A program made the translations under genes and the position numbers. Source: Bdellovibrionales bacterium (GTDB lineage: Bacteria > Bdellovibrionota > Bdellovibrionia > Bdellovibrionales > JAGQZY01). From it: a DNA stretch of 64,000 nucleotides. Positions 31,786-55,491 of the stretch are shown here, piece by piece. The stretch's first letter is position 1. Every line of letters begins with the position of its first letter. A model generated the notes under the pieces. The model was not told the DNA's origin. It ran no database searches and saw only the letters and a program-made list of their open reading frames with translations. The stretch lies in the NCBI GenBank assembly GCA_965218815.1, contig CBDCLX010000002.1:2918176-2982175 (forward strand). Direction: 5' to 3'.

Positions 31786-32130
31786 GATGTATTCCCACCC
31801 CGTTTTCCATGTTTTTTCTGATCTTTTTGCTTTACGAATTCCATTTTGTGTTCATTTGAATGGGGTTTTTCTTGAGAACTTATGATTCCAAACCTGATTT
31901 GATTGGAAAAGTGAATTTTTGAATAAGGGAATCCATCACAGAAAACCCGGGTTCTCCGTCAGAGTTCTCCAATGAAGAAGATTCATGAGAAATCGAAAAC
32001 CTCCTCCTCTTCCGGTGGCCCCCTTGGAGAACAGGGCTCTGGAATTCCTGACTCCAGTCCCAAGTGGGTGAGAATCTTTTTGATGACTTCAGGTCCCTCT
32101 ATGGAAGAGATGACTTTGAGTTTCCCCCCA
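31747..32130 (-). mobile_element. IS91-family remnant A (3' end of tnpA plus the end downstream of tnpA)
   Basis: Near-identical to 38086-38469 of the intact copy. Homology stops abruptly after tttcccccca at 32130. Confidence 0.85.
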
Positions 32131-35100
32131 GCATCCCCCATGGTTCACAAATTGTTACCCTTAATGCTTCCGGTGTGACAGGATCGGATCAGGTTCGCTA
32201 TGCCAACTTCAACGGCAGACTCAATATTATGCAAAATGTTTTAAACAGACCCTTGAGGGACTATATGCTCCCCCGTGTTGATCCAGCCTCCACAGCTATG
32301 GTGAACCCCACACAGACAACCACTGTTAGTAACACAAACGCTGGTGTGACTTTAACAGTTCCCCGGAACACGGCCATGAATAGTGACGGAACCATATACT
32401 CAGGCCCCCTGTCCGTTGATATGGTTCCAACAGATGCCACCCCAAGGGAATTGCCGGAAGAGTTTCAGCCAAGCTTTATTATCACCATTCAACCCACAGG
32501 GGTGAGGTTTAATAATCCTGTGCCCATAACCTTTCCAAATACTGATAATTTACCCGCAGGAAGTGTGACTGAGCTTTTCTCTCTTTCAGAAAGGGGAGGT
32601 TTTGAGAGTGTTGGCTTTGGCAGAGTATCTTCTGATGGTCGGACTATCACTACAATAGCAGGGGGTGTGAGAAGTGCCAGTTGGCATTTTATGACTGTCA
32701 TAGAACCAAGGCTTGAAAAAATCGGTCCACCGGATTCCGGTGATGGAGACAACAATGATAACGATCCTGATATGTGTGAGGGAAGTCTTTTGTGTGTGGC
32801 TTCAGGGGCATTGGGTGAGGACCATGAACTTCCCGGTTTTGTCAGTCATGGGGTCCCCATTACAATGAAAATGGGTTATAAGAATCCCCCTTCCCTTGAG
32901 TTCAGTCCCATACAATTCAGAGTTGTTTATGTCACACGCAGAGTTCCCATTGATCCCAGGAATCCCGGTAGAACTATTGCCATAAATCCACTTCCGGTTC
33001 CAAGAATGACTGTAAATACAACCATAGGTGGTTCAACTTCTCCAATGACTTCCTTTAATACCACAGATCTATTAAGCAGACCGGATACCCCCTTTGGTCT
33101 TGTCAAACACATTGAAACCCGTGGGATGGGTACAGGTATTCATTCCATTGGACTCTCAGTGGGTCTGGGTGCCTCCATGAACGGAGGGGGATCAAGAACA
33201 ATGAAAAAAAGTGTTGATTATCCTGTGATCTCTCCTGACACGGAGTTCGGCATGGGTTGGAGGTTTGAGGGGCTTCACAAGCTCTATGGAATGAACGGTG
33301 ATCCGGTGAGTTCCACATCCAGGAAGATCATGCTTGTCTATGGAAACTTCAAGTTCCTTGTTTTTGACAGAAACGAGGATGGCACCTACACTTCTCCCCA
33401 AGGGGATTATTCCACCCTTTCCTTTATTCCCGAACCCTTTGGGGGTTACAGCAGGGTTGCCAAGGATGGCACCAACTATGTCTTTGACCGACACGGAAAA
33501 CTTGCGGGTTTTCTTGACAGGTACAACAGAAGAACCACATACAACTATGATACCAGCAGTGGTAAACTCACAGAGATTTTGTATAGTAACGGAAGCAGGA
33601 CCTCTTTTGTTTACGGCTCTGACGGTTATATTGACACTATTACTGACCCCATGATGCGGGTCACACGTTTTAGTCATGATTCCACAGGTCATCTTTTGCA
33701 AATTATTGATTCTGACAATACAACCCGGACCTTTGACTATGGGGCAGATCACAGACTTCTCTCCCAGGTGGATAAAAAGCAAAGGGCCAAGAACTATGGT
33801 TATGATGAGATGGGTAACGTGGTTCAGGTCATACGTCCTGACAACACTCAGGTTGGATTGACCTCAAAGGTGACAAAGCTGACAACCCAGGGAGGGGATT
33901 CCTCTATGGTTATGGTTGATAATGACAGCAGGTTTTCCAACTTTTCAGATGCCAGGGGGAATGTGACAAAAATAGAGACCAACGCTTTTGGTTCCTCTAT
34001 GAAGTCCATAGACCCTATGGGTCAGACGGTGAGTTATACAAGAGATGAAGACAACAACATCACACAAAGCACTGACAAAAGAGGAAATGATGTTACAAGA
34101 GCCTATGATTCTATGGGTAATTTAACTTCCTTTAGAGATGCACACTTCAGACAATACAGTTATGGGTATATGTCAAACCCGGCAGATAACTTTCATCAGA
34201 TCACATCAAACAGAGATGCCAGGGGGAACACAACAACCTACAGTTACGACAGGCTTGGAAATTTGACAAGAATGATGATGCCAAACAGCAGGTCCACCAG
34301 TTTTACCTACAATGGGTATTTGATGACCTCCATGACTCGTGCTGAGGACATTCAGGATGTTACAACCCACTTTGAACATGATGCCAATGGGAACGTGACT
34401 ATTGTCAGGGATAATGGGAGACTGATTATAAGCCAAAGGACCTATGACAGTGCGGGAAATGTTTTAACCAGCACGGATGCCCTTGGGAATACGACCACCT
34501 ACACTTATGATTCCATGAACAGACTCTCAACCCAAACGGATGCCAGGGGGGGAGTTGTTCAATACGACTATGACAACATGGGAAATTTAACCTTCATCAC
34601 AGATGAGAGAAACCATATCACCTCTTTTGAGTACGACGGGATGGATCGTCTGGTTAAGGTCACAGACCCAAGGCTTTTCACTGAAGAGTTTGAATACGAT
34701 GCCAACGGAAATCTTATTGAAAAAACAGACAAGAATGGGGACACCATCATCAGTCAGTATGATGTGTTAAACAGGATGGAAAATAAAACCTTTCCCGATG
34801 AAAGCACTTATGTTTTCACTTATGATCCAAATAATAATCTTCTCACAGCCACAGACTCTGATTCAGATATTTCCTTCACCTATGATGAAAGATCAGATCG
34901 TTTGGCTCAGGCTTCAACAGTCAACAACAAAACAGTTCCCGATGTGGATATTTTCTACTCCTATGATGACAACGATAACATAACATCAGTTTATGATTCT
35001 GTGGCTGGAGCCGATCAGATCTTCTATGGTTATGATGAGAGTAACAGACTCATTAGAATTGGTCGCTCATCCACTGATCCTTCGTCTATTAGGTTTAGCT

Positions 35101-36506
35101 ACAATAAACTGGACAACAGGACAGGAACTATTTACCCCAATGGAGTTACTTCCTCATACCTCTATACCCCTGGAAAACCCAACCGGTTAAGAACACTGAC
35201 TCACAGTCTGACAACAACCCCTTTAAACGAGGATGGAACTTCGGGAGAGACCACAATAGAAACCCATTCCTCTTTTGTTTACTCCTATAATCTCAATGAC
35301 TATGTCACAGGTGTTGATACCGTCAGGTCAGAGTTGACTGTGAACTCTCATCTGACTTATATCTATGACACTGACAATCAGTTAACCTCGGCCACAAAGC
35401 CCCAGGGCACAGGGACAGAGACCTTTACCTATGATCTTTCAGGGAACAGGTTAAGAAGAGATGAAGAGACCGTGGATTCCACATTCTCAGATAACAATGA
35501 ATTGACAAATGACAAAACCTACACCTATGTCTATGACAGGAACGGAAACCTCACACAAAGAACCCATATTGCAACAGGACAAGTTACAACCTACACCTGG
35601 GATTATGAGAATCAATTAACTTCGGTAATAACAAAACCCAATGCCACGGCTGAACCAACAAGTGAGGTTTCTTACAGGTACGATGCTCTGGGAAGAAGAA
35701 TACAGAAGAATGTGAATGACACCATAACCAACTATGTTTATGATAGAGACAATATCCTGTTGGAGTTTAATGCCCAGAACATGATGAAAGCCAAGTACAC
35801 ACACAGTGGCAGGACAGATGAAGTGATGATTATGGAAAGACCTGAGAGTCCACATACAAGTGAGAGTTTTTCAAACCAGAGATATTACTACCACCATGAC
35901 CGTCTGGGTTCCACAGCAGAGATTACAAATCCATCAGGGGATGTTGTCCAACGCTATGTCTATGATTCTTTTGGAAACACCAGTATTTACAACAAAGACG
36001 GGACAGAGATTACAGAAGCCAGTACGGATTATCTGAAAAACCCATACACTTTCACAGGACGTGAACGTGATCCTGAAACAGGACTCCACTACCACAGGGC
36101 CAGATACTACAATCCAGAAGCTGGAAGGTGGATCAGTTCTGATCCTATTGGGTTTGACAGTGGGGATACTAACTTTTACAGGTATGTTTTCAACAATTCG
36201 ATAAATTTTAATGATCCTGATGGAGAAATTTTATGCCCAATTGCTATTGCAGCAGGAGTATCTTATGATATATTGTCTGCTATATCAAATCAAATAGATA
36301 AAGGTGAAAAGTTAAGGAAGGAATTAGAAGAACTTAGGAGAAAAGAAAGTACATGTTCTGATCCTTCTGAACAATTGAAATATCAAAAAAAACAAATAGA
36401 ATTACTCCGGAAGTACAAAAATCTTGGCTATATAGATGCAATACTTGCAACTCTTCCAGGAAGAGGTTTTGCAATAGCAGTACTTATTTGTATTGGTCTT
36501 CTATAA
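32064..36506 (+). CDS. Rhs/YD-repeat protein, N-terminally truncated by the IS91 remnant
   Basis: Dozens of YD repeats (e.g. YTYDSMNRL, YDYDNMGNL, FEYDANGNL). RHS core end YYHHDRLGS...RYYNPEAGRWISSDPIGF...FYRYVFNNSINFNDPDGE. The first 22 codons are antisense IS91 sequence. Confidence 0.9.
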   Translation: MGENLFDDFRSLYGRDDFEFPPSIPHGSQIVTLNASGVTGSDQVRYANFNGRLNIMQNVLNRPLRDYMLPRVDPASTAMVNPTQTTTVSNTNAGVTLTVPRNTAMNSDGTIYSGPLSVDMVPTDATPRELPEEFQPSFIITIQPTGVRFNNPVPITFPNTDNLPAGSVTELFSLSERGGFESVGFGRVSSDGRTITTIAGGVRSASWHFMTVIEPRLEKIGPPDSGDGDNNDNDPDMCEGSLLCVASGALGEDHELPGFVSHGVPITMKMGYKNPPSLEFSPIQFRVVYVTRRVPIDPRNPGRTIAINPLPVPRMTVNTTIGGSTSPMTSFNTTDLLSRPDTPFGLVKHIETRGMGTGIHSIGLSVGLGASMNGGGSRTMKKSVDYPVISPDTEFGMGWRFEGLHKLYGMNGDPVSSTSRKIMLVYGNFKFLVFDRNEDGTYTSPQGDYSTLSFIPEPFGGYSRVAKDGTNYVFDRHGKLAGFLDRYNRRTTYNYDTSSGKLTEILYSNGSRTSFVYGSDGYIDTITDPMMRVTRFSHDSTGHLLQIIDSDNTTRTFDYGADHRLLSQVDKKQRAKNYGYDEMGNVVQVIRPDNTQVGLTSKVTKLTTQGGDSSMVMVDNDSRFSNFSDARGNVTKIETNAFGSSMKSIDPMGQTVSYTRDEDNNITQSTDKRGNDVTRAYDSMGNLTSFRDAHFRQYSYGYMSNPADNFHQITSNRDARGNTTTYSYDRLGNLTRMMMPNSRSTSFTYNGYLMTSMTRAEDIQDVTTHFEHDANGNVTIVRDNGRLIISQRTYDSAGNVLTSTDALGNTTTYTYDSMNRLSTQTDARGGVVQYDYDNMGNLTFITDERNHITSFEYDGMDRLVKVTDPRLFTEEFEYDANGNLIEKTDKNGDTIISQYDVLNRMENKTFPDESTYVFTYDPNNNLLTATDSDSDISFTYDERSDRLAQASTVNNKTVPDVDIFYSYDDNDNITSVYDSVAGADQIFYGYDESNRLIRIGRSSTDPSSIRFSYNKLDNRTGTIYPNGVTSSYLYTPGKPNRLRTLTHSLTTTPLNEDGTSGETTIETHSSFVYSYNLNDYVTGVDTVRSELTVNSHLTYIYDTDNQLTSATKPQGTGTETFTYDLSGNRLRRDEETVDSTFSDNNELTNDKTYTYVYDRNGNLTQRTHIATGQVTTYTWDYENQLTSVITKPNATAEPTSEVSYRYDALGRRIQKNVNDTITNYVYDRDNILLEFNAQNMMKAKYTHSGRTDEVMIMERPESPHTSESFSNQRYYYHHDRLGSTAEITNPSGDVVQRYVYDSFGNTSIYNKDGTEITEASTDYLKNPYTFTGRERDPETGLHYHRARYYNPEAGRWISSDPIGFDSGDTNFYRYVFNNSINFNDPDGEILCPIAIAAGVSYDILSAISNQIDKGEKLRKELEELRRKESTCSDPSEQLKYQKKQIELLRKYKNLGYIDAILATLPGRGFAIAVLICIGLL

Positions 36507-36518
36507 TTTTTAAAAAAA

Positions 36519-37883
36519 GTGTTTGATGGATACATGAAATCAATTAAGAAAATACCAGTTTCTAAATTATTATTTTTCTGGTTTGGTATTTTTATTTTCT
36601 TCTTTTTTTTCATTTCCTTATTTATTCAAGCAATATCTATTGAAAAGTTATTTATATTTACACAGGAAAATTATAATATTGATTCATTTTTGTTTTTTAT
36701 GGTTCAGAAATTTTTTAATAATGAAAGAATATTTAAATTCTTTGAGAACAATATATCTAAAATATACTTTTTTGTGGAAATGCCATTGATTTTCAGTTTT
36801 ATACCAACAACTTCTTGTATTTTAGGAGTTCTTTTTTCTCGCAGACTTAAAAGAGATTTTTTATTATCTTTATGCTTTAGACTATTACTAGTTTCTTTGT
36901 TTCCGTTACCTTTATTAATCATAAGGTCTTTTGAAATTCATGATGTAAACATCCTAAGTTTTTGTGTAATACTAGAGTTTTTAACAATATTATTTTTAGA
37001 TAGATTTTATAAAAGAAAAGTATTAAAATCAATGAAAAATTATCAAAAGATACTTTATTCATGTTCTTTCTATACGAAGATTGGAATAATCATTTTTTTC
37101 ACAAAATTTATTATAGATACACTAACAAAAGGATTCTTATGGGAGTTTTTTCTGACTGCTCTCCTTGCAGAGTTAAATTGTTTCATTTGTCTTTTAATTA
37201 TGAACAAGACACATCACTTTTATAAAAGGCATCCATCACTTTTAGAAAATAAATTAGGAAATGAAAAAAAACAGAAAGATAAAGATGTTGTTATAATGAA
37301 AAAATCATCAATGAATAAAATCCTAAAAGGAACTTGTTGGATTTTTTTTATTATTATGTCACTTCATATTATTTTTTCTCCAATTTTTTCTAAAGTATCC
37401 TCTCCTCTAACTTATACAAGCTTCTATGCAAGTTATTACGGCTGGGAGAAAATTCTTAAATTTCTCATTAAGAATGATGCTAATGTGAATGCAAGGGAAA
37501 ATGGATACACACTTTTACAAGTTGCTATGTCTCGAGGGCATGAACAAATTATAACTCTTCTTATTAAAAATGGAGCTAGCTTAAATGTGGAAGACAATTT
37601 GCTGGGTTGGACTCCCTTGCATCATGCAACTCAAGATAATCATAAAAAAATTGTAACTCTTCTTATTAAAAGTGGAGCCAATATAAATGCTAAAGGCAAA
37701 AAATATGGTTTCACTCCTTTACATATAGCAGTATTCAATGATTATACAGAAACCATATCTCTCCTTATAAAAAATAAAGCCGATGTTAGTATAAAAGACA
37801 ATGAGAATCGAAGTCCTCTTGATATAGCAAAAATTAGAAAGCGTAATGATATTATAAAAATATTAATCCATCCAGATTTTTAA
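36519..37883 (+). CDS. Polytopic membrane protein with C-terminal ankyrin repeats (candidate Rhs immunity)
   Basis: Many hydrophobic helices in the N-terminal ~330 aa. About 4 ANK repeats follow (GYTLLQVAMSRGHEQIITLLIKNGASLN, GWTPLHHATQDNHKKIVTLLIKSGANIN, GFTPLHIAVFNDYTETISLLIKNKADV). Very AT-rich. The start is uncertain (GTG 36519 or ATG 36534). Confidence 0.8.
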   Translation: MFDGYMKSIKKIPVSKLLFFWFGIFIFFFFFISLFIQAISIEKLFIFTQENYNIDSFLFFMVQKFFNNERIFKFFENNISKIYFFVEMPLIFSFIPTTSCILGVLFSRRLKRDFLLSLCFRLLLVSLFPLPLLIIRSFEIHDVNILSFCVILEFLTILFLDRFYKRKVLKSMKNYQKILYSCSFYTKIGIIIFFTKFIIDTLTKGFLWEFFLTALLAELNCFICLLIMNKTHHFYKRHPSLLENKLGNEKKQKDKDVVIMKKSSMNKILKGTCWIFFIIMSLHIIFSPIFSKVSSPLTYTSFYASYYGWEKILKFLIKNDANVNARENGYTLLQVAMSRGHEQIITLLIKNGASLNVEDNLLGWTPLHHATQDNHKKIVTLLIKSGANINAKGKKYGFTPLHIAVFNDYTETISLLIKNKADVSIKDNENRSPLDIAKIRKRNDIIKILIHPDF

Positions 37884-38085
37884 GATCAGACAGAGTATTT
37901 CCAACATTTGTATCAATAGAGAGTAATGTTTTAAAATCAGTGACAATAATAAATCGAGGTTTCTGTTTTTTTATTTTTGGATCATTTTTAATTTTGTCAA
38001 TCAGACCATAAAGATCATCTTGACATTCCACTTTGAAAAATATTTTATTTTTCCAAACTATCTCTCCGGAATTTTTGGAAAGATT
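37852..38085 (-). pseudogene. Possible N-terminal remnant of an MmeI-like (type IIL) enzyme
   Basis: PRFIIVTDFKTLLSIDTNVGNTLSDLKNL resembles the conserved PRYI.VSDF..F.L.D segment near MmeI-family N-termini, as I recall it. It is truncated on both sides. Confidence 0.3.
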
Positions 38086-40063
38086 GTGTATAAGCAGGAT
38101 AAAAGATATTTTATCAGAGATCAAGATGTATTCCCACCCCGTTTTCCATGTTTTTTCTGATCTTTTTGCTTTACGAATTCCATTTTGTGTTCATTTGAAT
38201 GGGGTTTTTCTTGAGAACTTATGATTCCAAACCTGATTTGGTTGGAAAAGTGAATTTTTGAATAAGGGAATCCATCACAGAAAACCCGGGTTCTCCGTCA
38301 GAGTTCTCCAATGAAGAAGATTCATGAGAAATGGAAAACCTCCTCCTCTTCCGGTGGCCCCCTTGGAGAACAGGGCTCTGGAATTCCTGACTCCAGTCCC
38401 AAGTGGGTGAGAATCTTTTTGATGACTTCAGGTCCCTCTATGGAAGAGATGACTTTGAGTTTCCCCCCACACTCCGAACAAACCTCAATGTCCATTCCAA
38501 AAACCCTTTTAAGTCTCCCGGCCCAGTTCATGGAAGAGGATTTTCCGGACTTTGTTGCTTGTTTTTCAGGGCTTTTTGTTTTTGGAGTGATAAGACGATG
38601 GTGTTTGAAATTCGGGGCAAAGATTCCATGAAACCTTATGAGGTTGGTTTTTGGTCTTGGAACAAGGGAAGCCAGTCGTGAGAGAAAGTCCAGAGGATCA
38701 AGGACAATCCGGGTGGTTCCATTCTCATAAGGGGTTTTTAACTGATAAATCACCTTTCCCTGAGAGTTTACTGAAAGCCTTTGTTCACTCAGACTTGGTC
38801 TTGAAATGTAACGACAAATCCTTTCAGGCTTTTCCCTCTGGTGGACTTTTGTAGAAACCCCGGCGTGGAGACTAAAGCCTGAGTGTTTTGACAGAAAAGG
38901 CTTCTCCCTGTTGTTTGTTTCAGGAAGAGTTTTCAGTGTCAGGGCCTTTTGACCTTTGTGTTTTCCAAGGGCTATTCGGTAAGTAATCGATGAGGATTGG
39001 ACCTGGTCCATGGCCGTGGGGCCTGAGTCCAGTGAAAGAAAGGCTGTTCCCCCATCCTTTTCAATGAATCCCCGTTTTTCCAAAAATCTGACCACTCTTT
39101 GAACAAGACTTTTAAGGAGTTTGTCGAGTTCCTGGTTTGAAGGGGGAGTTGTCAATTGAAACTTTGGTCTTCCGTCTTCAAAGCTGTAGACTCCATCGGG
39201 AAACATCATGTGGAAGTGGATATTGAGGTTAAGGCTTCCACCGAAGCGTTGAATGAAAGTCACTGAACCTGTTCTGGCTCCTGACTTTTTAGTGAAACCC
39301 GCTTTTTTGATGAGAAAGGTGCAAAGAGTTCTGTTGACAAGACCCAAAACCTCTCCCATGACTTTGTGGTCTCTGGCAAACAGGAATCTGAGTTGAAAGG
39401 GAAAAGTCAAAACCCACTGTCTCATGGGTTTTTCGGGAAAAACCTCATCAACCAAATGGGTGGCACTTTCAGCCATTCTCCTGGCTCCGCAACTGGGACA
39501 GAATCCCCGTTTTTTGCAACTAAAGGCGACAAGCTTTTCATGGTTGCAGGATGTGCATTGGACTCTTAGAAACCCATGGGCCAGAACTCCACATTTGAGA
39601 AACTCGTCAAATTCCTGTTTCACGAATTCCGGAAGTCCTTTTTCATAATCCCGGTCCATTTGTTGATAGAAGTCCAGAAGATTTTTCTGGATGAGTTTGT
39701 AGAGAAGAGTTTTTTCCGGTTGGTGTCGTTTATAACTGACGGGGGGATTGGAAAAAGCAAATCTATTTGCAAATGAACATTTCATCACAGGAAACATAAA
39801 GGGAGCAAATCAAATAACCATTCCCGTATGCAGTAATCAGTAGTTCAACCACGGTAGACCACCAGATTCAGTGTTTAGTCGTTATAATCAATCTCTGGGA
39901 CAGTGTTTGCGGTTATCGGGAATACTGTTGGACCTGGCGTAGTTGTCGTAATGTTCACAGATGTTCTGAAACAGGGATGTTTGTGAACTGCCAAACTCAG
40001 GACTGTTTGCAATTCTGCGTCTGAGATTTCTTCGAAAATTCTCCCTCAGCCGAAAGAGGCAGA
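38086..40063 (-). mobile_element. IS91-family element, apparently intact copy B (the end upstream of tnpA is not determinable)
   Basis: Contains the complete tnpA. The end starting GTGTATAAGCAGG at 38086 is shared with four other copies. The other boundary is set only by where unrelated fragments begin (40064). Confidence 0.7.
38322..39797 (-). CDS. tnpA: IS91-family (Y2/HUH rolling-circle) transposase
   Basis: N-terminal zinc-binding domain (CTSCNHEKLVAFSCKKRGFCPSCG), a core typical of the IS91/IS801 family, and a C-terminal CSECGG zinc ribbon. Confidence 0.92.
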   Translation of the reverse strand: MFPVMKCSFANRFAFSNPPVSYKRHQPEKTLLYKLIQKNLLDFYQQMDRDYEKGLPEFVKQEFDEFLKCGVLAHGFLRVQCTSCNHEKLVAFSCKKRGFCPSCGARRMAESATHLVDEVFPEKPMRQWVLTFPFQLRFLFARDHKVMGEVLGLVNRTLCTFLIKKAGFTKKSGARTGSVTFIQRFGGSLNLNIHFHMMFPDGVYSFEDGRPKFQLTTPPSNQELDKLLKSLVQRVVRFLEKRGFIEKDGGTAFLSLDSGPTAMDQVQSSSITYRIALGKHKGQKALTLKTLPETNNREKPFLSKHSGFSLHAGVSTKVHQREKPERICRYISRPSLSEQRLSVNSQGKVIYQLKTPYENGTTRIVLDPLDFLSRLASLVPRPKTNLIRFHGIFAPNFKHHRLITPKTKSPEKQATKSGKSSSMNWAGRLKRVFGMDIEVCSECGGKLKVISSIEGPEVIKKILTHLGLESGIPEPCSPRGPPEEEEVFHFS

Positions 40064-41296: not shown

Positions 41297-41603
41297 TTAC
41301 TGGTAAGATAATACCACAGAGCTTTTACAAAAACAATCCAGAGATAAAACCTTTATTTTATAGATGCTGCTAGCTTGAATTTCAAAAAATCCAGTTTCCT
41401 GAGACGACGATCCGTCTCTTTCATCTGACGATCTGTCTCCTTCTGACTGGCAGACTGAGGTTCCGCAGCAAGGATCTTGATCGCTCACCCGTTTCAGCCG
41501 AAAGGGTCTTGATCTGCTTGCCTGTCTCCGCCTGACTGGTCGAAACTTCCCTCAAAATACTCCAGATTTCATCGGGTGTTGGAATGGATGGTTGATTGGT
41601 CAT
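41297..41603 (-). pseudogene. Tandemly duplicated, frameshifted 5' fragment of the DUF3782-like gene
   Basis: 41385-41603 repeats 42035-42250 (MTNQPSIPTPDEIWSILREVSTSQ... versus MTSQPSIPTPDEIWSILREVSTSQ...). An indel breaks the frame. Confidence 0.65.
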
Positions 41604-41614
41604 TTCAGACTCCT

Positions 41615-42250
41615 TCAGGCAAAGGCTTTGGGTTTGAAGTTTTTTGCGTTAATGATGGAGGCACTGCTTCCCGTGGCACGGATTACAAACAAACCTCTGT
41701 TCTCTGAGTTTCCCTCTGTTCCCTCATTGGCTTTCAGGTAGGCTACAGCCCCGTAAACAGTCCTGTCCCTATACTCCGGCAAAATCTGTTTGAACACTTT
41801 AAGTTTTTCTGTGAACTTTTCCAGGTCCTTGAGTTTTAAAGTGGTCTTGACCTCCACCACCACAACCTCATCCCCATTGATGGCAATAATGTCAAATTCA
41901 TACTGTTTTCCATTCCACCGACGTTCATGTTCTTTCGCAATTCCGTTGACCTGAATGCCACGGGTATTGAGCAATTCGACCAAATCCCCTTTGACCAGAG
42001 CTTCCATAAGTTTGCCCCACTGTCCGGTAAAAAGATCATCCAGTTTCCTGAGACGACGATCCGTCTCTTTCATCTGACGATCTGTCTCTTTCTGACTGGC
42101 AGACAGTTCTGCAGCAAGGGTCTTGATCTGCTCACCCGTTTCAGCCGAAAGGGTCTTGATCTGCTTGCCTGTCTCCTTCTGACTGGTCGAAACTTCCCTT
42201 AAAATACTCCAGATTTCATCGGGTGTTGGAATGGATGGTTGACTGGTCAT
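41615..42250 (-). CDS. DUF3782-like protein: N-terminal coiled coil plus C-terminal PD-(D/E)xK-like domain
   Basis: Repetitive N-terminus (ETGKQIKTLSAETGEQIKTLAAE...KETDRQMKETDRRL). C-terminal EFDIIAINGDEVVVVEVKTTL fits a D...E.K nuclease-fold motif. Confidence 0.65.
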   Translation of the reverse strand: MTSQPSIPTPDEIWSILREVSTSQKETGKQIKTLSAETGEQIKTLAAELSASQKETDRQMKETDRRLRKLDDLFTGQWGKLMEALVKGDLVELLNTRGIQVNGIAKEHERRWNGKQYEFDIIAINGDEVVVVEVKTTLKLKDLEKFTEKLKVFKQILPEYRDRTVYGAVAYLKANEGTEGNSENRGLFVIRATGSSASIINAKNFKPKAFA

Positions 42251-44542: not shown

Positions 44543-44558
44543 GTCTAGCCCGCATTTC
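44543..44558 (-). repeat. Copy of the GAAATGCGGGCTAGAC dispersed motif between convergent genes
   Basis: The reverse complement of gtctagcccgcatttc is gaaatgcgggctagac. It is related to 8401-8412, 8500-8511 and the 4373-4452 arms (gaagttcggtctagac). Confidence 0.5.
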
Positions 44559-44766
44559 AAGTTAGAGCTTGATGAGACTCTTTCTTTTCACTCCCTTTAT
44601 TTGTTTTTTTGTTTTGAGGGGTTTTTAGATCTTCATAAAAGACTGTATATCTTCTCGTTTTCATCTCTGCGGGCCACCCATCCACTTCTTTCGCTACTTT
44701 GGAAAGATAAGTGATGTAATCTTTTCCATCTTCTGGCGACTCAGGATTTGCCTTTTTTTTCTTCAT
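44557..44766 (-). CDS. Small Lys-rich protein (69 aa) translationally abutted to the deaminase gene
   Basis: The ATG at 44766 directly follows the deaminase stop codon (44767-44769). No family recognised. Confidence 0.5.
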   Translation of the reverse strand: MKKKKANPESPEDGKDYITYLSKVAKEVDGWPAEMKTRRYTVFYEDLKTPQNKKTNKGSEKKESHQALT

Positions 44767-46236
44767 TTAGTCCTCCTTTTCTTTCAAGTATTTATGAACA
44801 ACTTTGGCTGCTATTTTTTCTTCACCTATGTACTTATTAGATTTTTCGCTCAACCTCAAGCTTATAGATTTTTTCTTAGGCTCAAAATCAATAATATGCC
44901 CATTTTCTTTCCTCTCAACTTCTCTACCTGAACTCAATTTGAGAGAAAACAGGTCAAAATAGCGTCGTGGCCCAACACCTAAAAATGGAAGAAATGAAAC
45001 CCTGGTCTCATTCTCCTTATCAAGGCTAATTGAATCTTTGTGAAGTTCTTCTGTTAAACTCTTTGGATAAGGCTCAACGTATACCACTTTCATGATACCC
45101 GCAGCAACTATATGCTTTGCACAATTGTGACATGAATATGTCGTTGTATAAAGTGTGCCACCTCTAACAGAAGTACCGACTCTGGCAGCAGCTAAAAGAG
45201 CTTCCATTTCTGCATGAACGGCTCTGCCATATTCTGTGATATCTCTAATCTCACTTTTTTCAAGCTCAACTTCTAATATATTCATCTGCTCCTCAGTAAA
45301 CTGACCATTTTGGTTACACTGAACAGCGTTAAGAATGTTTTTCATTATACTATTTCTGCGTTTTTCATTAGAGTCATATTTCTTTTGGAAATCTCTTGCG
45401 TCAGGTTTATCTTCATTATTATATAATCCACCCTTGGCTTTCGGAACATCATTTGCCCCCTGAGCAATGATATCACCTTCTTTACTAACAATAACTGCAC
45501 CAACTTGTCGTGACAAATCCGATGATCGTAAAGATGCCGCATAAGCCTGAAACATATTGTGTTCTTCAGGGTTTGGAGTGTGATAGGGGAATCCAAACAG
45601 AAGTTCTATAAACCTTTTGGATTGCCTGACCATGGTGTCACGATCGCTGCCATCTATGAAAACATCCGATAACTGGTATGATTTTCTCAATTTTTGTCCA
45701 TGAGGAAAAGTTTCCTCTTGATCTCTTAAAATTAATTCTTTTGCTTTATCTTCTGGAATGTTTTTAACTCCCATCAAATTTGAAATTCTCTTCTCTATAG
45801 TGCTATGTAAACCAACGAGATAAAAACTTCCACCATAGACTTGTCTCAAAAGTTTTATTTCTTCATGATGTTTGAGTGAATTAAAAATGTATGCTCTTCG
45901 TCCATCTTGGGAACTTTTTTTATGAAGCTTAGATATTTTTGCCATTGCGTTCCTAACTAAAATATCATTGTTTCCAGACTCTTTTCTAATTTTATTACCA
46001 GCATCCATATATGAACTAATGCGATCAAATTCTGAATTATAGTTAGAAGAAGATTTTATTTCTTTAAAAACAGTTGATAAAATCTCTGTTAACTTGATTA
46101 TCTCAGTACTATAATTATATTCTGATAACTGGCTGGAAATCACTGTTGAGAGCTCTTGGAGATCACTGCCAACGGCACCAACCAATCCAAGAAAAAGATC
46201 TTCAAAGTTGTCTGTATTTGCTGATTCCATCGACAT
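44767..46236 (-). CDS. Anti-phage-type dCTP deaminase (AvcD/DcdV-like): kinase-like N-domain plus cytidine/dCMP deaminase domain
   Basis: N-terminal degenerate P-loop FLGLVGAVGSD. C-terminal zinc motifs HAEMEAL (about 45203-45220) and YSCHNCAKHI. Length and layout match the defensive dCTP deaminases. Confidence 0.82.
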   Translation of the reverse strand: MSMESANTDNFEDLFLGLVGAVGSDLQELSTVISSQLSEYNYSTEIIKLTEILSTVFKEIKSSSNYNSEFDRISSYMDAGNKIRKESGNNDILVRNAMAKISKLHKKSSQDGRRAYIFNSLKHHEEIKLLRQVYGGSFYLVGLHSTIEKRISNLMGVKNIPEDKAKELILRDQEETFPHGQKLRKSYQLSDVFIDGSDRDTMVRQSKRFIELLFGFPYHTPNPEEHNMFQAYAASLRSSDLSRQVGAVIVSKEGDIIAQGANDVPKAKGGLYNNEDKPDARDFQKKYDSNEKRRNSIMKNILNAVQCNQNGQFTEEQMNILEVELEKSEIRDITEYGRAVHAEMEALLAAARVGTSVRGGTLYTTTYSCHNCAKHIVAAGIMKVVYVEPYPKSLTEELHKDSISLDKENETRVSFLPFLGVGPRRYFDLFSLKLSSGREVERKENGHIIDFEPKKKSISLRLSEKSNKYIGEEKIAAKVVHKYLKEKED

Positions 46237-46367
46237 CTATTTTATCTAATGCAATAAATAAATCAGTAACTAAAGTTAGGTAAAAGAAAAAATATCTGGT
46301 GGTTCCAGACCAAAAGCTAGTAAGTATAGAGAAACCCCTTAAAAAATCAAATACGAATAGCCATTTT

Positions 46368-47079
46368 GTGTATAAGCAGGATAAAAGATATTTTATCAGA
46401 GATCAAGATGTATTCCCACCCCGTTTTCCATGTTTTTTCTGATCTTTTTGCTTTACGAATTCCATTTTGTGTTCATTTGAATGGGGTTTTTCTTGAGAAC
46501 TTATGATTCCAAACCTGATTTGATTGGAAAAGTGAATTTTTGAATAAGGGAATCCATCACAGAAAACCCGGGTTCTCCGTCAGAGTTCTTCAATGAACAA
46601 GATTCATGAGAAATGGAAAACCTCCTCCTCTTCCGGTGGCCCCCTTGGAGAACAGGGCTCTGGAATTCCTGACTCCAGTCCCAAGTGGTTGAGAATCTTT
46701 TTGATGACTTCAGGTCCCTCTATGGAAGAGATGACTTTGAGTTTCCCCCCACACTCCGAACAAACCTCAATGTCCATTCCAAAAACCCTTTTAAGTCTCC
46801 TGGCCCAGTTCATGGAAGAGGATTTTCCGGACTTTGTTGCTTGTTTTTCAGGGCTTTTTGTTTTTGGAGTGATTAGAGAGCGGTGTTTGAAATTTGGGGC
46901 AAAGATTCCATGAAACCTTATGAGGTTGGTTTTTGGTCTTGGAACAAGGGAAGCCAGTCGTGAGAGAAAGTCCAGAGGATCAAGGACAATCCGGGTGGTT
47001 CCATTCTCATAAGGGGTTTTTAACTGATAAATCACCTTTCCCTGAGAGTTTACTGAAAGCCTTTGTTCACTCAGACTTG
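46368..47079 (-). mobile_element. IS91-family remnant C (end downstream of tnpA plus the last ~143 codons of tnpA)
   Basis: Colinear with 38086-38800 of copy B. Homology ends at ...cactcagacttg (47079). Confidence 0.85.
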
Positions 47080-47520: not shown

Positions 47521-47644
47521 AGAGGGTTTAGGAGAAAAGTGTTCGTGACCCCCATTTCGACGCTCTTTTTGGAGTACTTTTGATCGGGAATAGTGGAAGG
47601 GGCTCTTGTGTTTTGGAAGAGCAGGAAAATTCTTAGATGGGAAA

Positions 47645-48365
47645 ACTTCAAGACCAAGTTTGAGTGAACAGAGGCTTTCTATGAACTCACAGGGGAAGGT
47701 GGTTTACCAGTTAAAAACCCCTTATGAGAATGGAACCACCCGGATTATTCTTGAGCCTCTGGACTTTCTCTCTCGCCTGGCTTCTCTCATTCCAAGACCC
47801 AGAACCAATCTCATAAGGTTTCATGGAATCTTTGCACCGAATTTCAAACACCGCTCCCTAATCACTCCAAAAACAAAAAGCCCTGAAAAACAAACAACAA
47901 AGCCCGGAAAATCCTCTTCCATGAACTGGGCCAGGAGACTTAAAAGGGTTTTTGGAATGGACATAGAGATTTGCTCGGAATGTGGGGGAAAGTTAAAAGT
48001 CATCTCTTCAATAGAGGAACCTGAGGTCATTGAAAAGATTCTCAACCACTTGGGACTGGAGTCAGGAATTCCAGAGCCCTGTTCTCCAAGGGGGCCACCT
48101 GAAGAGGAGGAGGTTTTCCATTTCTCATGAATCTTGTTCATTGAAGAACTCTGACGGAGAACCCGGGTTTTCTGTGATGGATTCCCTTATTCAAAAATGC
48201 ACTTTTCCAACCAAATCAGGTTTGGAATCATAAATCCTCAAGAAAAACTCCTGTCAAATGACCATAAAATGGAGTTCGTAAAGCAAAAGATCAGAAAAAC
48301 CATGAAAAACGGGGTGGAAATACATCTTGATCTCTAAAAAAATATCTTTTATCCTTCTTATACAC
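47645..48365 (+). mobile_element. IS91-family remnant D, inverted relative to A-C
   Basis: ORF 47606-48130 encodes the tnpA C-terminus (…YQLKTPYENGTTRI…CSECGGKLKV…), followed by the end region finishing ...ccttcttatacac at 48365. Confidence 0.85.
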
Positions 48366-51454: not shown

Positions 51455-52291
51455 ATGACCACAATAGAAAAAATCCTCCAACTCCACAGCCAGTGGCTTA
51501 AGGTTTGCCCACTTTCTGAGGAAAACCATAAAGCTCTGTGGAAGTGGATCCGTATGCGGTTTAACCATACTTCAAATCATATTGAAGGAAACACTCTCAC
51601 TTACAATGAAACCCAACTGCTTCTCATTCACGGGCGGGCTTCAGGGGATCATAAGCTCCGGGAGTATGAGGAAATGAAAGCCCACAATGTGGCCTTTGAC
51701 CACATGGTTCGGTTGGCTCAGGAAAAAAGACCCATCAATGAGGGGGATATTAGGGATCTAAATAAAATTTGTCTAAAAGAGCCTTTTTATAAAATGGCCA
51801 AAACTCCTGATGGGGAATCCACACGGAAAAAAATCATTCCTGGAGAATACAAAATACAACCCAATCATGTTCTGACGGAAACTGGCGAAATCTTTCAGTT
51901 CGCTACCCCTGAAGAAACGCCGTCATTGATGGCGGAACTGGTGGAGTGGATAGAACAGTGGCTTCAGGAGAGCTTGGAGGATCAACACAAAAGCCTTGTT
52001 TCTTTTTTGGCTGAACTCCATAAGCGGTTTATATTGATTCATCCCTTTGATGATGGAAACGGGAGAGTGGTTCGTCTTTTGATGGGCTATGTTCTTGTTC
52101 GCCTGAATTTTCTCCCTATCATTATCCATGACAGAAAGGAATACATTAAAGCCATACAGTTTTCCGATGCCGGAGACATAAAACCCCTTGAGGAGTTACT
52201 TGCTGCCAATATAACCATGATGCTTAAAAAAGGTCTTCTTGCCAAAGATTGTAAAATAAACCTCAATGAATCTTTAGCAGAGAGTGAGTAA
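51455..52291 (+). CDS. Fic-family protein (copy B), immediately upstream of hsdR
   Basis: HPFDDGNGRVVR motif. Its stop lies 2 nt before the hsdR ATG. Confidence 0.88.
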   Translation: MTTIEKILQLHSQWLKVCPLSEENHKALWKWIRMRFNHTSNHIEGNTLTYNETQLLLIHGRASGDHKLREYEEMKAHNVAFDHMVRLAQEKRPINEGDIRDLNKICLKEPFYKMAKTPDGESTRKKIIPGEYKIQPNHVLTETGEIFQFATPEETPSLMAELVEWIEQWLQESLEDQHKSLVSFLAELHKRFILIHPFDDGNGRVVRLLMGYVLVRLNFLPIIIHDRKEYIKAIQFSDAGDIKPLEELLAANITMMLKKGLLAKDCKINLNESLAESE

Positions 52292-52293
52292 TT

Positions 52294-55200
52294 ATGGCCA
52301 TTGCAAAACACACAGAGGATCTGGCCTCCCATGTACCCGCTCTTTATTTACTGTGCCAGCTTAAATATAAAAATGTGGGTTACGAGTATTTGACCCCTTC
52401 CGAAACTGTGGAATTAAGGGGTGCAAACCTCAGTCGTTGTGTTCTTGAGCCTGTTCTTAAAAAATGGCTTCTGGAAAATAACAGGATTCAGGGAAAAAGT
52501 AAAACCCACACCTTTAGTGAAAACAATATCCGTTACGCTGTGGATGCCATGACCAAGATCTCAGGCGACCATCTTCTTGGCAATAATGAAAAGGTCTATG
52601 ATCTTTTGACTCTTGGAAAAAGTTTTGATCAGAACATTGATGGGATTTCAAAGTCCCGCCAACTCCAATACATCAACTGGAAAGAGCCGGAAAAGAATGT
52701 GTACCATGTCACAGATGAGTTTGAGGTGGAAAGAACAAACTCCCACAAAACAAGAAGGCCGGACATTGTTGTTTTTGTTAATGGCATCCCCCTTGTTATT
52801 ATTGAGTGTAAAAGACCGGGGCTTCATAAAGACGCTGTTAAGGAGGGGATCAGTCAACATTTAAGAAATCAAAAATCTGATGAAATCCCGGAGCTTTTTA
52901 ATTTTTCCCAACTGTTGTTAAGTCTTGCCCAGAACAGTGGAAAATACGCCACAACAGGAACCCCCCAGGAGTTTTGGTCCACATGGAAAGAAAGGGAAGT
53001 GGCAAACCAAAAAGAGGAACTTAAAAAACTTGTTAACAACCCTCTGTCTGAAACTGTTAAGAAAAAGATTTTTTTAGAAAAAAAACCATATCAGAGAAAA
53101 GAGATGGAAAAAATCCGGTCTTTAGGATCAGGGCTTCCCTCAGACCAGGACCGGTTGATTCACTCTCTGTTAAGACCTGAAAGACTTATGAAATTGATTT
53201 ATCAGTTCATTGTCTTTGACAATAAGGAAAAAAAGATCTGTCGCCATCAGCAATACTTTGCGGTTCAGGCCACTCTTGAACGTGTCACCAGGATAGATGA
53301 TGGAAAACATCAGGGGGGTGTCATCTGGCACACAACAGGGTCGGGTAAATCCCTGACAATGGTCATGATGGCAAAGGCTCTGGTTCTTAATGAATCCATA
53401 AAAAATCCAAGAATTATTCTGGTCACGGATCGGGTGAATCTGGATGATCAGATTTATAAAACATTTTTAGCCTGTGGAAAGGGTGATGTTCTTGAAAAAG
53501 CCAAAACCGGAAAGCATTTGATCTCTCTTCTTGAAGAGGGAAAAAAATCAATCATTACAACCATTATTGATAAATTTGAATCGGCCAGTCAGAGGAAAAA
53601 CCTGAAAATAGAAAGTCCTGACATTTTTGTTTTGGTTGATGAGAGTCACAGATCCCAATATGGTGTGAGTCATGCAAAAATGTTTAATATACTGCCCAAC
53701 GCCTGTTATATAGGCTTTACGGGAACCCCGCTTTTAAGGAAAGACAAATCCACTTCCAAAAAGTTTGGTGGGTTTATTCACAAATACACCATGAATCAGG
53801 CCGTTCAGGACGGGGCTGTTGTTCCTCTCCTGTATGAGGGGCGAATGAGTGAGATTCACGGGGATAAGGACAAATTGGATAAATGGTTTGACCGGATCAC
53901 GGAAGATCTTACTGAAAAGCAAAAATCGGATTTAAAAAATAAATTTAAAAAAGAAAATGTTGTTCTTGGGGTTGAGCAAAGATTAGGGGAGATCGCCTTT
54001 GATATACAGACTCACTTTATAAAGAATTTCAAAGGGACCGGAGCCAAGGGACAGCTTGTCTGTTCAAGCAAAAAAGATGCTATCAAGTTTAAAGAATGTT
54101 TTGATGATTTTGGAAAGATAAAAACAGAGGTGATTATTTCCCCTCCCGATACGAGGGAAAATCATGAGAATATTGATGAGTCCAAAACGCCTGAAATTCA
54201 GACCTTTTGGAAGAGTATGATGAAACTTTACGGAACAGAATCGAGATATAATGATGCCATTATCAGGTCTTTTAAATACTCAGAACACCCTGAAATTATC
54301 ATTGTTGTTGATAAACTGCTTACAGGTTTTGATGCTCCGGTAAACAGTGTTCTCTATATCGACAAGAGGTTAAAGGACCACAACATTTTGCAGGCTATAG
54401 CCAGGGTGAACAGGGTTTTTGAACATAAGACCCATGGGCTGATTATTGACTACCGGGGAGTGTTCGGCCATTTGAATGATGCCATAGACACTTATGCCGC
54501 TCTTGAAAATGAGGGATTTGATAAAGAGGATATTGAAGGCACTCTTTACCCTATTGATGAGGAAATCAGGGAACTGGCCCAAAGACATTCCAATTTGTGG
54601 GAAATCTTTAAAGAAGTGGAGAACAAAGGGGATACTGAATCCCTTCAACGAGCCCTTGAGCCTCTTGAGATAAGAGAGGACTTCTACAAAAAACTCAATT
54701 TATTCTCAAAAACATGGCAATGGGCCAGGAGCAATGCAAAATTTCAGGACGAAACCCCTGAAGAAACAAAAAAAAGATATGATGGGGATCTGAAAATGTT
54801 CGTGGGACTTAGGGCTGCTGTGAAGCAACGCTATGGTGAAACAGTGGACTATTCCCAATATGAAAAACAACTGGAAAAGATGGTCAGTCAATCTGTTTCA
54901 GCAGACCCGGTGGAGGTCATCATCGAGCAGGCCGATATTTTTAACCATGAGACTTTTGAAAAGGAGGTCAGTTCAGTCAAAGGGGATGTGGCCAAAGCTG
55001 ATGTTATTTCCAACAGAATGAAGCGAAGTCTTTCTGAAAAAATGGAGGAAAACCCGGCCTTTTATAAGGAACTTTCAAAACTGATTGAAGAAACCATCAC
55101 AGCCCACCGGGAAAAAAGAATTTCTGATGCACAATACTTAGAGCAGGTCAGAGACCATTTACACAGAGCCCAGGGGAAAAGTAAAGAAGACTACCCTGAA

Positions 55201-55491
55201 AAGATACGCAATAACGAAAATGCAAAAGCGTATTTCGGAACCCTTAAGGAAAAAATCTCTTTAAAACCGGACATTCTTTCGGACATTTCTCTTGAAATAG
55301 ACAAGTCAATCAAAAAGCACGTTATCCGGGACTGGGTTTATAATCAGGACGTGCAGAACAGGATGATGACGGATATTGAAGGCATACTTTTTGCTTCAAA
55401 GGAAAAACATGGTTTGGATCTGTCCTATGAGATCATCGAGGAACTCATGGAGGCATTTATAACAGTGGCAAAAAACAGGGAGTCCTGTTGA
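52294..55491 (+). CDS. hsdR: Type I restriction endonuclease subunit R
   Basis: N-terminal nuclease motif RPDIVVFVNGIPLVIIECKRP. Helicase motifs HTTGSGKSLT, LVDESHRSQ, FTGTP. 1065 aa. Confidence 0.95.
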   Translation: MAIAKHTEDLASHVPALYLLCQLKYKNVGYEYLTPSETVELRGANLSRCVLEPVLKKWLLENNRIQGKSKTHTFSENNIRYAVDAMTKISGDHLLGNNEKVYDLLTLGKSFDQNIDGISKSRQLQYINWKEPEKNVYHVTDEFEVERTNSHKTRRPDIVVFVNGIPLVIIECKRPGLHKDAVKEGISQHLRNQKSDEIPELFNFSQLLLSLAQNSGKYATTGTPQEFWSTWKEREVANQKEELKKLVNNPLSETVKKKIFLEKKPYQRKEMEKIRSLGSGLPSDQDRLIHSLLRPERLMKLIYQFIVFDNKEKKICRHQQYFAVQATLERVTRIDDGKHQGGVIWHTTGSGKSLTMVMMAKALVLNESIKNPRIILVTDRVNLDDQIYKTFLACGKGDVLEKAKTGKHLISLLEEGKKSIITTIIDKFESASQRKNLKIESPDIFVLVDESHRSQYGVSHAKMFNILPNACYIGFTGTPLLRKDKSTSKKFGGFIHKYTMNQAVQDGAVVPLLYEGRMSEIHGDKDKLDKWFDRITEDLTEKQKSDLKNKFKKENVVLGVEQRLGEIAFDIQTHFIKNFKGTGAKGQLVCSSKKDAIKFKECFDDFGKIKTEVIISPPDTRENHENIDESKTPEIQTFWKSMMKLYGTESRYNDAIIRSFKYSEHPEIIIVVDKLLTGFDAPVNSVLYIDKRLKDHNILQAIARVNRVFEHKTHGLIIDYRGVFGHLNDAIDTYAALENEGFDKEDIEGTLYPIDEEIRELAQRHSNLWEIFKEVENKGDTESLQRALEPLEIREDFYKKLNLFSKTWQWARSNAKFQDETPEETKKRYDGDLKMFVGLRAAVKQRYGETVDYSQYEKQLEKMVSQSVSADPVEVIIEQADIFNHETFEKEVSSVKGDVAKADVISNRMKRSLSEKMEENPAFYKELSKLIEETITAHREKRISDAQYLEQVRDHLHRAQGKSKEDYPEKIRNNENAKAYFGTLKEKISLKPDILSDISLEIDKSIKKHVIRDWVYNQDVQNRMMTDIEGILFASKEKHGLDLSYEIIEELMEAFITVAKNRESC

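Follow-up and report, generated by a model that had tools for sequence, protein, structure and literature searches.

Defensive dCTP deaminases, once active, turn dCTP and dCMP into dUTP and dUMP and starve phage DNA synthesis. We analysed one such enzyme, together with the small gene that follows it, in a 64,000-nucleotide stretch of DNA from a Bdellovibrionales bacterium (assembly GCA_965218815.1, contig CBDCLX010000002.1, positions 2,918,176 to 2,982,175), hereafter the window, in whose numbering all coordinates are given. Two groups of described enzymes provide the closest comparisons. The type III toxin-antitoxin system AvcID (DcdV-DifV), from VSP-1 of Vibrio cholerae, was described by Hsueh et al. 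as the deaminase AvcD plus an untranslated RNA, AvcI or DifV, located immediately 5' of it and in the same orientation (bioRxiv 10.1101/2021.03.31.437871; PMC10511110). AvcI has no sequence conservation, and AvcD homologues are toxic when expressed alone and need a post-translational inhibitor (bioRxiv 10.1101/2021.03.31.437871); once translated, the enzyme is bound and inhibited by AvcI, an RNA that is lost when transcription stops (PMC10511110). For Tal et al. the dCTP deaminase was a one-gene system, which they cloned together with its promoter (bioRxiv 10.1101/2021.04.26.441389). Neither study mentions an open reading frame (ORF) 3' of the deaminase gene. Shut-off of host transcription triggers members of the family (bioRxiv 10.1101/2021.04.26.441389; PMC10511110).

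At the window locus the deaminase gene is followed by just such an ORF. Judging from its sequence, the locus is a two-gene operon made of the deaminase and a translationally coupled mini-protein, that is, a two-gene form of a known defence system and an ordinary member of its lineage. It comprises the following parts:

44767 to 46236, minus strand: anti-phage dCTP deaminase of 489 amino acids (aa), AvcD-like clade, with its stop codon TAA at 44769-44767.
44772 to 44778, minus strand: Shine-Dalgarno sequence AAGGAGG of the small ORF, read from the sequence, within the last deaminase codons and 5 bases before the ATG.
44557 to 44766, minus strand: second cistron, a basic mini-protein of 69 aa (isoelectric point, pI, 9.5) of the 'helix + W-P-x-W-K' family, sub-variant WPAEMK, recognised as an ORF and by family conservation.
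44644 to 44721, minus strand: conserved core of the mini-protein, residues 16-41 (DYITYLSKVAKEVDGWPAEMKTRRYT), an amphipathic helix plus a W-P-x-(W/E)-x-K cap, delimited by column frequencies, a sub-lineage alignment (A5) and an AlphaFold2 (AF2) model.
46237 to 46367, minus strand: native DNA left upstream of the deaminase, 131 bp (129-131 bp to the end of the insertion sequence, IS), delimited by the IS boundary.
46366 to 47079: IS91-family remnant, the end of the element with the C-terminal portion of its transposase; identity to 38084-38797 is 98.5%.

The original prediction had taken the 489-aa protein for a two-domain AvcD-like dCTP deaminase, and the family models agree: the NCBIfam equivalog NF041025 scores 480.7 bits (cutoff 400) over residues 14-433 of 489 and spans both domains, the PADLOC dCTPase model matches with 1.1e-160 and Pfam dCMP_cyt_deam_1 with 1.9e-16, and the motifs stand where they had been placed (GLVGAVGSD at residue 17, HAEMEAL at 341, and SCHNC at 368). 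A kinase-like N-terminal domain is fused to a zinc deaminase domain, in which the zinc site (HAE 341-343 and C369/C372) has all its ligands and the catalytic Glu intact. With AvcID it shares a kinase-like N-domain in which Ser stands for the Walker lysine (GxVGSD in the window), the RDQ motif, and the HAE-X28-(P)CxxC arrangement. Because the Ser-for-Lys P-loop and the RDQ motif are those implied by the AvcD mutants S52K and D162A/Q163A, the window enzyme is an AvcD-like anti-phage dCTP deaminase, probably of the same clade as AvcD. One residue sets it apart from its relatives: Ser368 (codon 45133-45135) replaces the Pro of the PCxxC zinc motif, which is Pro in 51 of 53 aligned relatives and Ser in the window only, and this change may alter its activity. 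An identical protein is present in NCBI/ENA (P0167), and the best match in species-level genomes is a metagenome-assembled genome of Bdellovibrionales (46%). The AF2 model of a relative (P0211) consists of a dCMP-deaminase domain and an adenylate-kinase-like domain (structure matches, template modelling score 0.8 to target), and a PDB search returned no full-length enzyme of this kind. Another relative (P0175, 583 aa, 58% identical to the window enzyme) has a long insertion of ~20-aa tandem repeats (SEEQVKDLQEKLRK...) in its deaminase domain, just before HAE.

The deaminase stop had also been reported to be directly abutted by the ATG of a Lys-rich 69-aa ORF, and this junction is confirmed at 44767/44766: the ATG (44766-44764) follows the TAA in the same frame, at offset 0. 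In the AF2 model of the mini-protein, residues 12-29 are helical; a W-P turn and a second, short helix (33-36) come next, and the remainder is disordered. The predicted local distance difference test score (pLDDT) is above 90 at residues 20-30, and the disordered tail is rich in Ser, Lys, Pro and Gln. The mini-protein occurs verbatim in NCBI/ENA (P0023), as does a variant differing by one residue (P0031). The small ORF is in frame with the deaminase both in the window and at one related locus (L154). Programmed frameshifting or readthrough as a general mechanism was rejected because, across loci, the small ORF uses all three relative frames and has its own Shine-Dalgarno sequence and start.

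Conservation of this ORF was examined in 80 species-level genome loci with deaminase relatives (38-47% identity, many phyla; 541 relatives were detected). Each deaminase stop was anchored by tblastn, and the 79 loci with enough downstream DNA were counted. An ORF was scored when it was 46-78 aa long, started within ~35 nt of the deaminase stop and carried W-[PSA]-x-[WEF]-(M)-[KR]; 639 positions in the same loci, opposite strand included, served as controls. Such an ORF is present at the deaminase stop in 65/79 loci, 61 of them with the exact WPxWK motif, which was found at none of the 639 control positions; six further loci have variant motifs (WEPWK, MPSWMK, MPEWQK, LPAWRD and others). The small ORF thus accompanies the deaminase in ~90% of the sampled clade relatives, in Proteobacteria, Planctomycetes, Myxococcota, Bacillota, Acidobacteria and satellites of E. 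coli O157:H7; Vibrio, Morganella and Photorhabdus deaminase loci also have it. Its start offsets cluster at the deaminase stop, an ATGA overlap (-4) being the commonest arrangement, and a Shine-Dalgarno-like tetramer precedes 52 of 66 family starts (79%) versus 16% of random control positions. Across 15 closely related pairs of small ORFs the ratio of non-synonymous to synonymous change (pN/pS) is 0.02-0.57, and two Pseudomonas copies differ by 13 synonymous versus 1 non-synonymous change. The 66 members share the column pattern F/Y(-14), H/Y(-11), L/F(-10), A(-7), V(-3), W(0), P(+1), W(+3), K(+4), Q/R/K(+5), with frequencies of 100% for W(0) and 97% each for P(+1), W(+3) and K(+4). After this core comes a non-conserved tail (median 26 aa) rich in Ser, Lys, Pro and Gln. 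Most members are basic (median pI 9.45, with 44/66 above pH 8), and 14/66 are acidic. A profile search over 1.84 billion cluster representatives yielded 797 family matches at E <= 0.001.

Motif conservation, pN/pS, Shine-Dalgarno sites, the core pattern and the AF2 helix therefore together argue that the 69-aa ORF is coding, conserved and under purifying selection, and the small ORF is almost certainly a real and dedicated partner gene of the deaminase. Conservation downstream of homologues and a coding signature had been named beforehand as what the small ORF should show, and both are found (65/79 loci; pN/pS 0.02-0.57; enrichment of Shine-Dalgarno sites). The suggestion that the ORF encodes a protein partner, and so a new variant, survives in its first half, the partner gene being supported by conservation and selection; the peculiarity of the locus does not, since what had been presented as a special variant among single-gene family members is the norm of the clade, with the small ORF in 58/58 short-deaminase loci.

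The window belongs to a sub-lineage with its own form of the motif. Its core reads ...DYITYLSKVAKEVDGWPAEMKTRRYTVFYEDL..., with Glu in place of the second Trp (WPAEMK), and it retains the family residues Y17, Y20, L21, V24, V28, W31 and P32. The four closest deaminases that could be placed on contigs (L082, L153, L154 and L155; 60-66% identical to the window enzyme) have ORFs of 55-76 aa at the deaminase stop, at offsets -20, +3, 0 and -4, respectively, and these small ORFs are 45-49% identical to the window mini-protein. E27, V28, D29, W31, P32, E34, K36, R39 and T41 are invariant in the sub-lineage alignment. Decay of the window motif was ruled out, as the Glu variant (WPxExK) is invariant in the four closest relatives; Glu also replaces the second Trp in a fifth locus (L021).

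The mini-protein family has left little trace in curated resources. For 58 family members, Pfam, NCBIfam, PADLOC and PDB gave no meaningful match: weak Pfam matches to villin headpiece and TryThrA_C concern one member each, and the PADLOC PD-T4-4_B match of the window ORF (E = 0.016) was discarded as chance, only 1/58 members matching. In PHROGs, phrog_38465 matches 30/58 deaminase-linked mini-proteins (best E 2.7e-13; the window copy falls below the threshold), showing that the family has already been clustered among phage and prophage proteins, with no function assigned there. The database names of family members are only 'hypothetical' or 'uncharacterized', and no report of the 3' ORF was found in the literature searched, which lay outside the subscription journals. 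Within that literature and these databases, the second gene appears to be undescribed.

Comparison with the validated single-gene systems places the mini-protein carriers in a clade apart. The single-gene enzymes of Tal et al. (E. coli AW1.7 and U09; 'dCTPdeaminase' in DefenseFinder and PADLOC) share with the window enzyme the annotated function, the name given by the NCBI Prokaryotic Genome Annotation Pipeline, the defence-island or mobile context and the triggering by shut-off of host transcription. In their native loci, the AW1.7 and U09-like enzymes are only 24-26% identical to that of the window, have a canonical Walker A (GLTGRTGSGCTT) and SPCELC, and are ~576 aa long, and there is no WPxWK ORF within 380-650 nt downstream. 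Because of this low identity, the canonical Walker A and the lack of a downstream WPxWK ORF, the validated single-gene systems belong to a different and distant clade. A protein search with a Vibrio mini-protein found no member in V. cholerae.

Type II toxin-antitoxin modules of reverse order, in which the toxin gene comes first, include higBA, hicAB and mqsRA. The deaminase locus resembles them in having a toxic enzyme gene followed by a small, translationally coupled gene, and in the existence of orphan small genes while no orphan short-type toxin was found. It differs in that the mini-protein matches no helix-turn-helix, ribbon-helix-helix, AbrB or Phd/YefM domain and shows no similarity to antitoxin families (Pfam, NCBIfam, PADLOC and PDB, 58 members), and in that phages also have the same module attached to unrelated enzymes.

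The presence of the small ORF follows the architecture of the deaminase. Among enzymes without an N-terminal extension, the ORF or a variant of it is present in 58/58 loci, and no short-type deaminase without it was found among the sampled loci; the loci that do lack it all have an extra N-terminal region of ~100 aa (8/8; Fisher p = 1.1e-5), and 13-14 loci have both the extension and the small ORF. One of the long-type deaminases without the ORF is that of E. coli strain 789 (L097). In the ORF-less deaminases (L028, L034, L040, L045, L050, L051, L060, L069 and L097), the unannotated ~100-aa N-domain contains the motif ...NWYPSTGxIxFQG... and has no Pfam match; at two of these loci (L040 and L045) a type I HsdR gene directly follows the deaminase. 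The opposite situation, a small ORF without its enzyme, occurs on two JGI metagenome contigs (L120 and L130), which match a complete-pair locus (L152) at 92% identity in their flanks: the deaminase has been swapped for genes of 294 aa and 206 aa, and the mini-ORF and ~35 nt of the deaminase 3' end are intact. The two proteins are also found as natural in-frame fusions (P0187, P0245, P0211 and the fragment P0102). P0187 (539 aa) and P0245 (538 aa) share 76% identity and both end in ...VKGWPDWKKN..., and in P0211 (565 aa) the deaminase part is 79% identical to P0237 while the joined peptide resembles P0007, which accompanies P0237 as a separate protein. Pairs also occur on mobile carriers: in E. 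coli O157:H7 FRIK944 the pair (WP_000704989.1 and WP_000021256.1) lies within a P4-like satellite (ogr, psu, integrase and tRNA-Sec) and is annotated as 'anti-phage dCTP deaminase' plus a 57-aa 'hypothetical protein' (MSIENGFIKHVVATKKIINEWPEWKKNMLGG...), and prophage and satellite contigs of IMG/VR carry the pair as well.

The core of the mini-protein, as the element 'HLExAxxIVxSWPEWKRNI', also occurs beyond deaminase loci. Searching for the exact WPEWKRNI coding pattern as back-translated DNA identified 9 IMG/VR contigs and 45 metagenome stretches; a deaminase lies directly upstream in 15/45 of the metagenome stretches and 0/9 of the viral contigs. Elsewhere the module forms free proteins of 40-60 aa or the C-terminal tails of zinc-ribbon proteins. 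In phage-like contigs without deaminase it is fused to MazG-like (L089), radical-SAM-like (L095/L145) and adenylosuccinate lyase (P0067 = L121) proteins, and it stands beside, or is coupled or fused to, RecG-like helicases near D5-type primases (L083-L086 and L093/L127). One contig (JGI24126J20157_1000008, 238,674 bp) encodes a 40-aa module protein (VTKFSAHLDRVSAIVDKWPEWKRNIFGG...) four times, in identical copies (L129, L137, L138 and L141), and the same protein is encoded on a 60-kb IMG/VR contig (L088). A 40-aa consensus of the module had no tblastn match in cultured phage genomes.

Upstream of the deaminase, the original prediction that an IS91 remnant cuts in after 131 bp is upheld by the inverted repeat arm that starts at 46368 and by the 98.5% identity of the remnant to a full copy. 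The segment 46366-47079 pairs, inverted, with 47655-48365; its counterpart at 38084-38797 is the end of a full IS91-family copy (transposase at 38322-39797), and the ORFs 46604-47035 and 47606-48130 are Y2_Tnp fragments. The 131 bp contain one sigma-70-like match (46350-46323) and a hairpin followed by a T-run (46310-46294), both at the background of shuffled sequences; their RNA fold has no unusual stability (z-score -0.07), an Rfam scan gave no match, and we found no sequence conservation between this DNA and the upstream regions of the four closest loci. The suggested loss of an upstream sRNA to the IS insertion is at most a possibility, AvcI itself having no conserved sequence. Space upstream varies among relatives: one of the four (L154) has 75 bp, a rough ORF-gap estimate leaves about one third of the loci with the small ORF under 100 nt of upstream DNA free of ORFs, and some loci have gaps of 480-640 nt. 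At another close relative (L155; ENA contig ctg226399, 1-797; deaminase 64% identical), an IS91-family transposase lies ~700 nt upstream with its 5' end facing the cassette, and other deaminase/mini-ORF relatives adjoin integrases or an IS66 element. The deaminase/mini-ORF cassette may move with rolling-circle IS elements.

A plausible mode of action is that of a short-lived protein brake. Translation of the deaminase ORF would, by coupling through AAGGAGG and the abutting ATG, lead to synthesis of the mini-protein, whose helix and cap would bind the enzyme and restrain it as long as the cell is healthy. Its flexible tail would make the mini-protein short-lived; once host gene expression has been stopped by a phage, no new brake would be made and the deaminase would be released. 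Such a brake would be the protein counterpart of, or a complement to, the labile AvcI RNA. The defensive logic would be that of AvcID, in which a small and labile molecule made from the deaminase locus keeps the toxic enzyme restrained once it has been translated; however, AvcI is an untranslated RNA encoded 5', whereas the product in the window family is a translated ORF immediately 3' and under purifying selection. We favour this mechanism, to which we assign a probability of roughly 0.4, because deaminases of this clade, toxic by themselves, need post-translational restraint, because they fire when host gene expression stops, and because the mini-protein combines a conserved binding element with a variable disordered tail. 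In addition, orphan peptides exist whereas no orphan short enzyme was seen, an asymmetry expected of an antitoxin, and many loci (75 bp in L154, 131 bp in the window) are too short upstream for a 174-nt AvcI-like RNA and its promoter. The natural fusions, as Rosetta-stone proteins, support a physical link between deaminase and module. Several observations weigh against a brake. Four AvcD homologues that were tested had activity as lone enzymes, and their upstream RNA was by itself enough for inhibition (bioRxiv 10.1101/2021.03.31.437871). The mini-protein has no homology to a known antitoxin or DNA-binding fold in the databases searched, and its second Trp, 97% conserved elsewhere, is Glu in the window sub-lineage. 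A brake released by dilution is hard to reconcile with covalent fusions, unless these are clipped or degraded, and the AF2 model of a natural fusion has the module at pLDDT 57-76 without confident docking onto the deaminase. Finally, the spread of the module among deaminase-free phage-like contigs points to a more general function.

That spread speaks for the main rival explanation, a somewhat less probable one, in which the mini-protein is not a simple inhibitor but a portable module that binds nucleic acid or the replisome, including single-stranded DNA-binding protein (SSB), and tethers or gates the deaminase at DNA or RNA, for instance to sense phage replication intermediates or to place the enzyme near replication forks. 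The module is promiscuous, occurring without deaminase in viral and metagenomic contigs, where it is joined to MazG-like, radical-SAM-like, adenylosuccinate-lyase and zinc-ribbon proteins or partnered with RecG-like helicases, and a deaminase adjoins only 15/45 of the metagenome WPEWKRNI stretches. The basic character of the family (median pI 9.45), with its invariant Trp, Trp and Lys followed by Gln, Arg or Lys, would suit such a function, and fusion in cis is natural for a targeting domain. Nevertheless, we found no similarity to a known nucleic-acid-binding fold, 14/66 members are acidic, one helix of 18 residues offers little surface for specific binding, and binding by itself leaves unexplained why short deaminases never lack the ORF. 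On another reading, the mini-protein would be a positive cofactor required by short-type deaminases for assembly, activation or substrate switching and replacing the ~100-aa N-domain of the long type. The complementary distribution (8/8 ORF-less loci with the extension, 58/58 short enzymes with the ORF), the existence of fusions and the roughly matched synthesis that translational coupling would give are in line with a cofactor, but we consider it improbable because 13-14 loci have both extension and ORF, AvcD homologues, which may however be of the long type, were active alone in E. coli, and orphan ORFs persist without any enzyme.

A three-part system seems unlikely as well, if marginally less so than a cofactor. 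An upstream AvcI-like RNA antitoxin would here act on the deaminase while the mini-protein stabilises, loads or senses the RNA, in analogy to the chaperone of tripartite toxin-antitoxin-chaperone modules. Since AvcI lies 5' of avcD in the same orientation and is not conserved in sequence, such an RNA is possible at any locus; Vibrio, Morganella and Photorhabdus loci carry the small ORF, some loci have upstream gaps of 480-640 nt, and the mini-protein is basic and Trp/Lys-rich. On the other hand, RNA alone sufficed to inhibit the enzyme in the four tested systems, about one third of ORF-bearing loci have by the rough estimate less than 100 nt of ORF-free DNA upstream, and the 131 bp of the window have neither an unusual fold nor an Rfam match and belong to a sub-lineage whose upstream regions share nothing. 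The notion that the small ORF is spurious, or an unrelated hitch-hiker without a role in the deaminase system, is effectively refuted: the ORF is very small and of low complexity outside its core, matches no curated family and lacks the second Trp in the window, but its amino acids are conserved across many phyla and GC contents with 0/639 controls positive, it shows purifying selection and Shine-Dalgarno sites, it occurs in natural fusions, and the core of the sub-variant is invariant in the window lineage. The short-lived protein brake on a deaminase stays our preferred, if tentative, mechanism for a partner gene whose existence is much firmer.

The surroundings of the operon contain further conflict-related genes and IS91 pieces:

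31747 to 32130, 38084 to 39797, 46366 to 47079 and 47655 to 48365: four pieces of one IS91-family element, 92-99% identical.
32064 to 36506: RHS/YD-repeat toxin.
36519 to 37883: ankyrin-repeat protein.
51455 to 55491: Fic-domain gene (278 aa) overlapping the start of a type I HsdR gene (1065 aa).

The IS91 pieces comprise one full copy with a transposase of 491 aa, two inverted remnants flanking a 553-nt spacer a short way upstream of the deaminase, and a 384-bp fragment adjoining the RHS gene, and their identity of 92-99% suggests recent activity of the element. With its restriction-endonuclease-like genes and several IS91 pieces, the region is a variable conflict-system island. A direct repeat (41389-41603 and 42038-42250; 97-99% identity, ~648-bp spacing) duplicates the 5' part of a 211-aa ORF (41615 to 42250, minus strand) and looks like a recent tandem duplication; after a repetitive N-terminus, this ORF has weak matches to Hjc, AHJR-like and UPF0102 nuclease folds.

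Defence by dCTP deaminases is a textbook case of nucleotide depletion, and the AvcI RNA, in a few strains, is the one case in which the silencing and release of the toxic enzyme are understood. The mini-protein provides a concrete and cheap hypothesis on how the deaminase is regulated or triggered, and its gene is a second protein gene absent from the PADLOC detection models and not covered by Pfam or NCBIfam families. Constructs with the deaminase ORF alone may misreport the behaviour of the enzyme. With phage genomes also encoding it, the module may represent an unexplored interaction motif or serve an anti-defence strategy. On a more speculative view, which we hold to be rather unlikely, the mini-protein would be the missing regulatory or infection-sensing subunit of the AvcD-like clade and would double as a portable module, carried by phages either on its own or fused to their nucleotide and DNA enzymes; the phage copies might plug into the same cellular hub (SSB, replisome or RNA) or act as decoys that neutralise the host deaminase. 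If this were true, what has been regarded as a defence of one gene, or of an enzyme plus an RNA, would be a protein-protein system in most lineages, with matching phage counter-measures.

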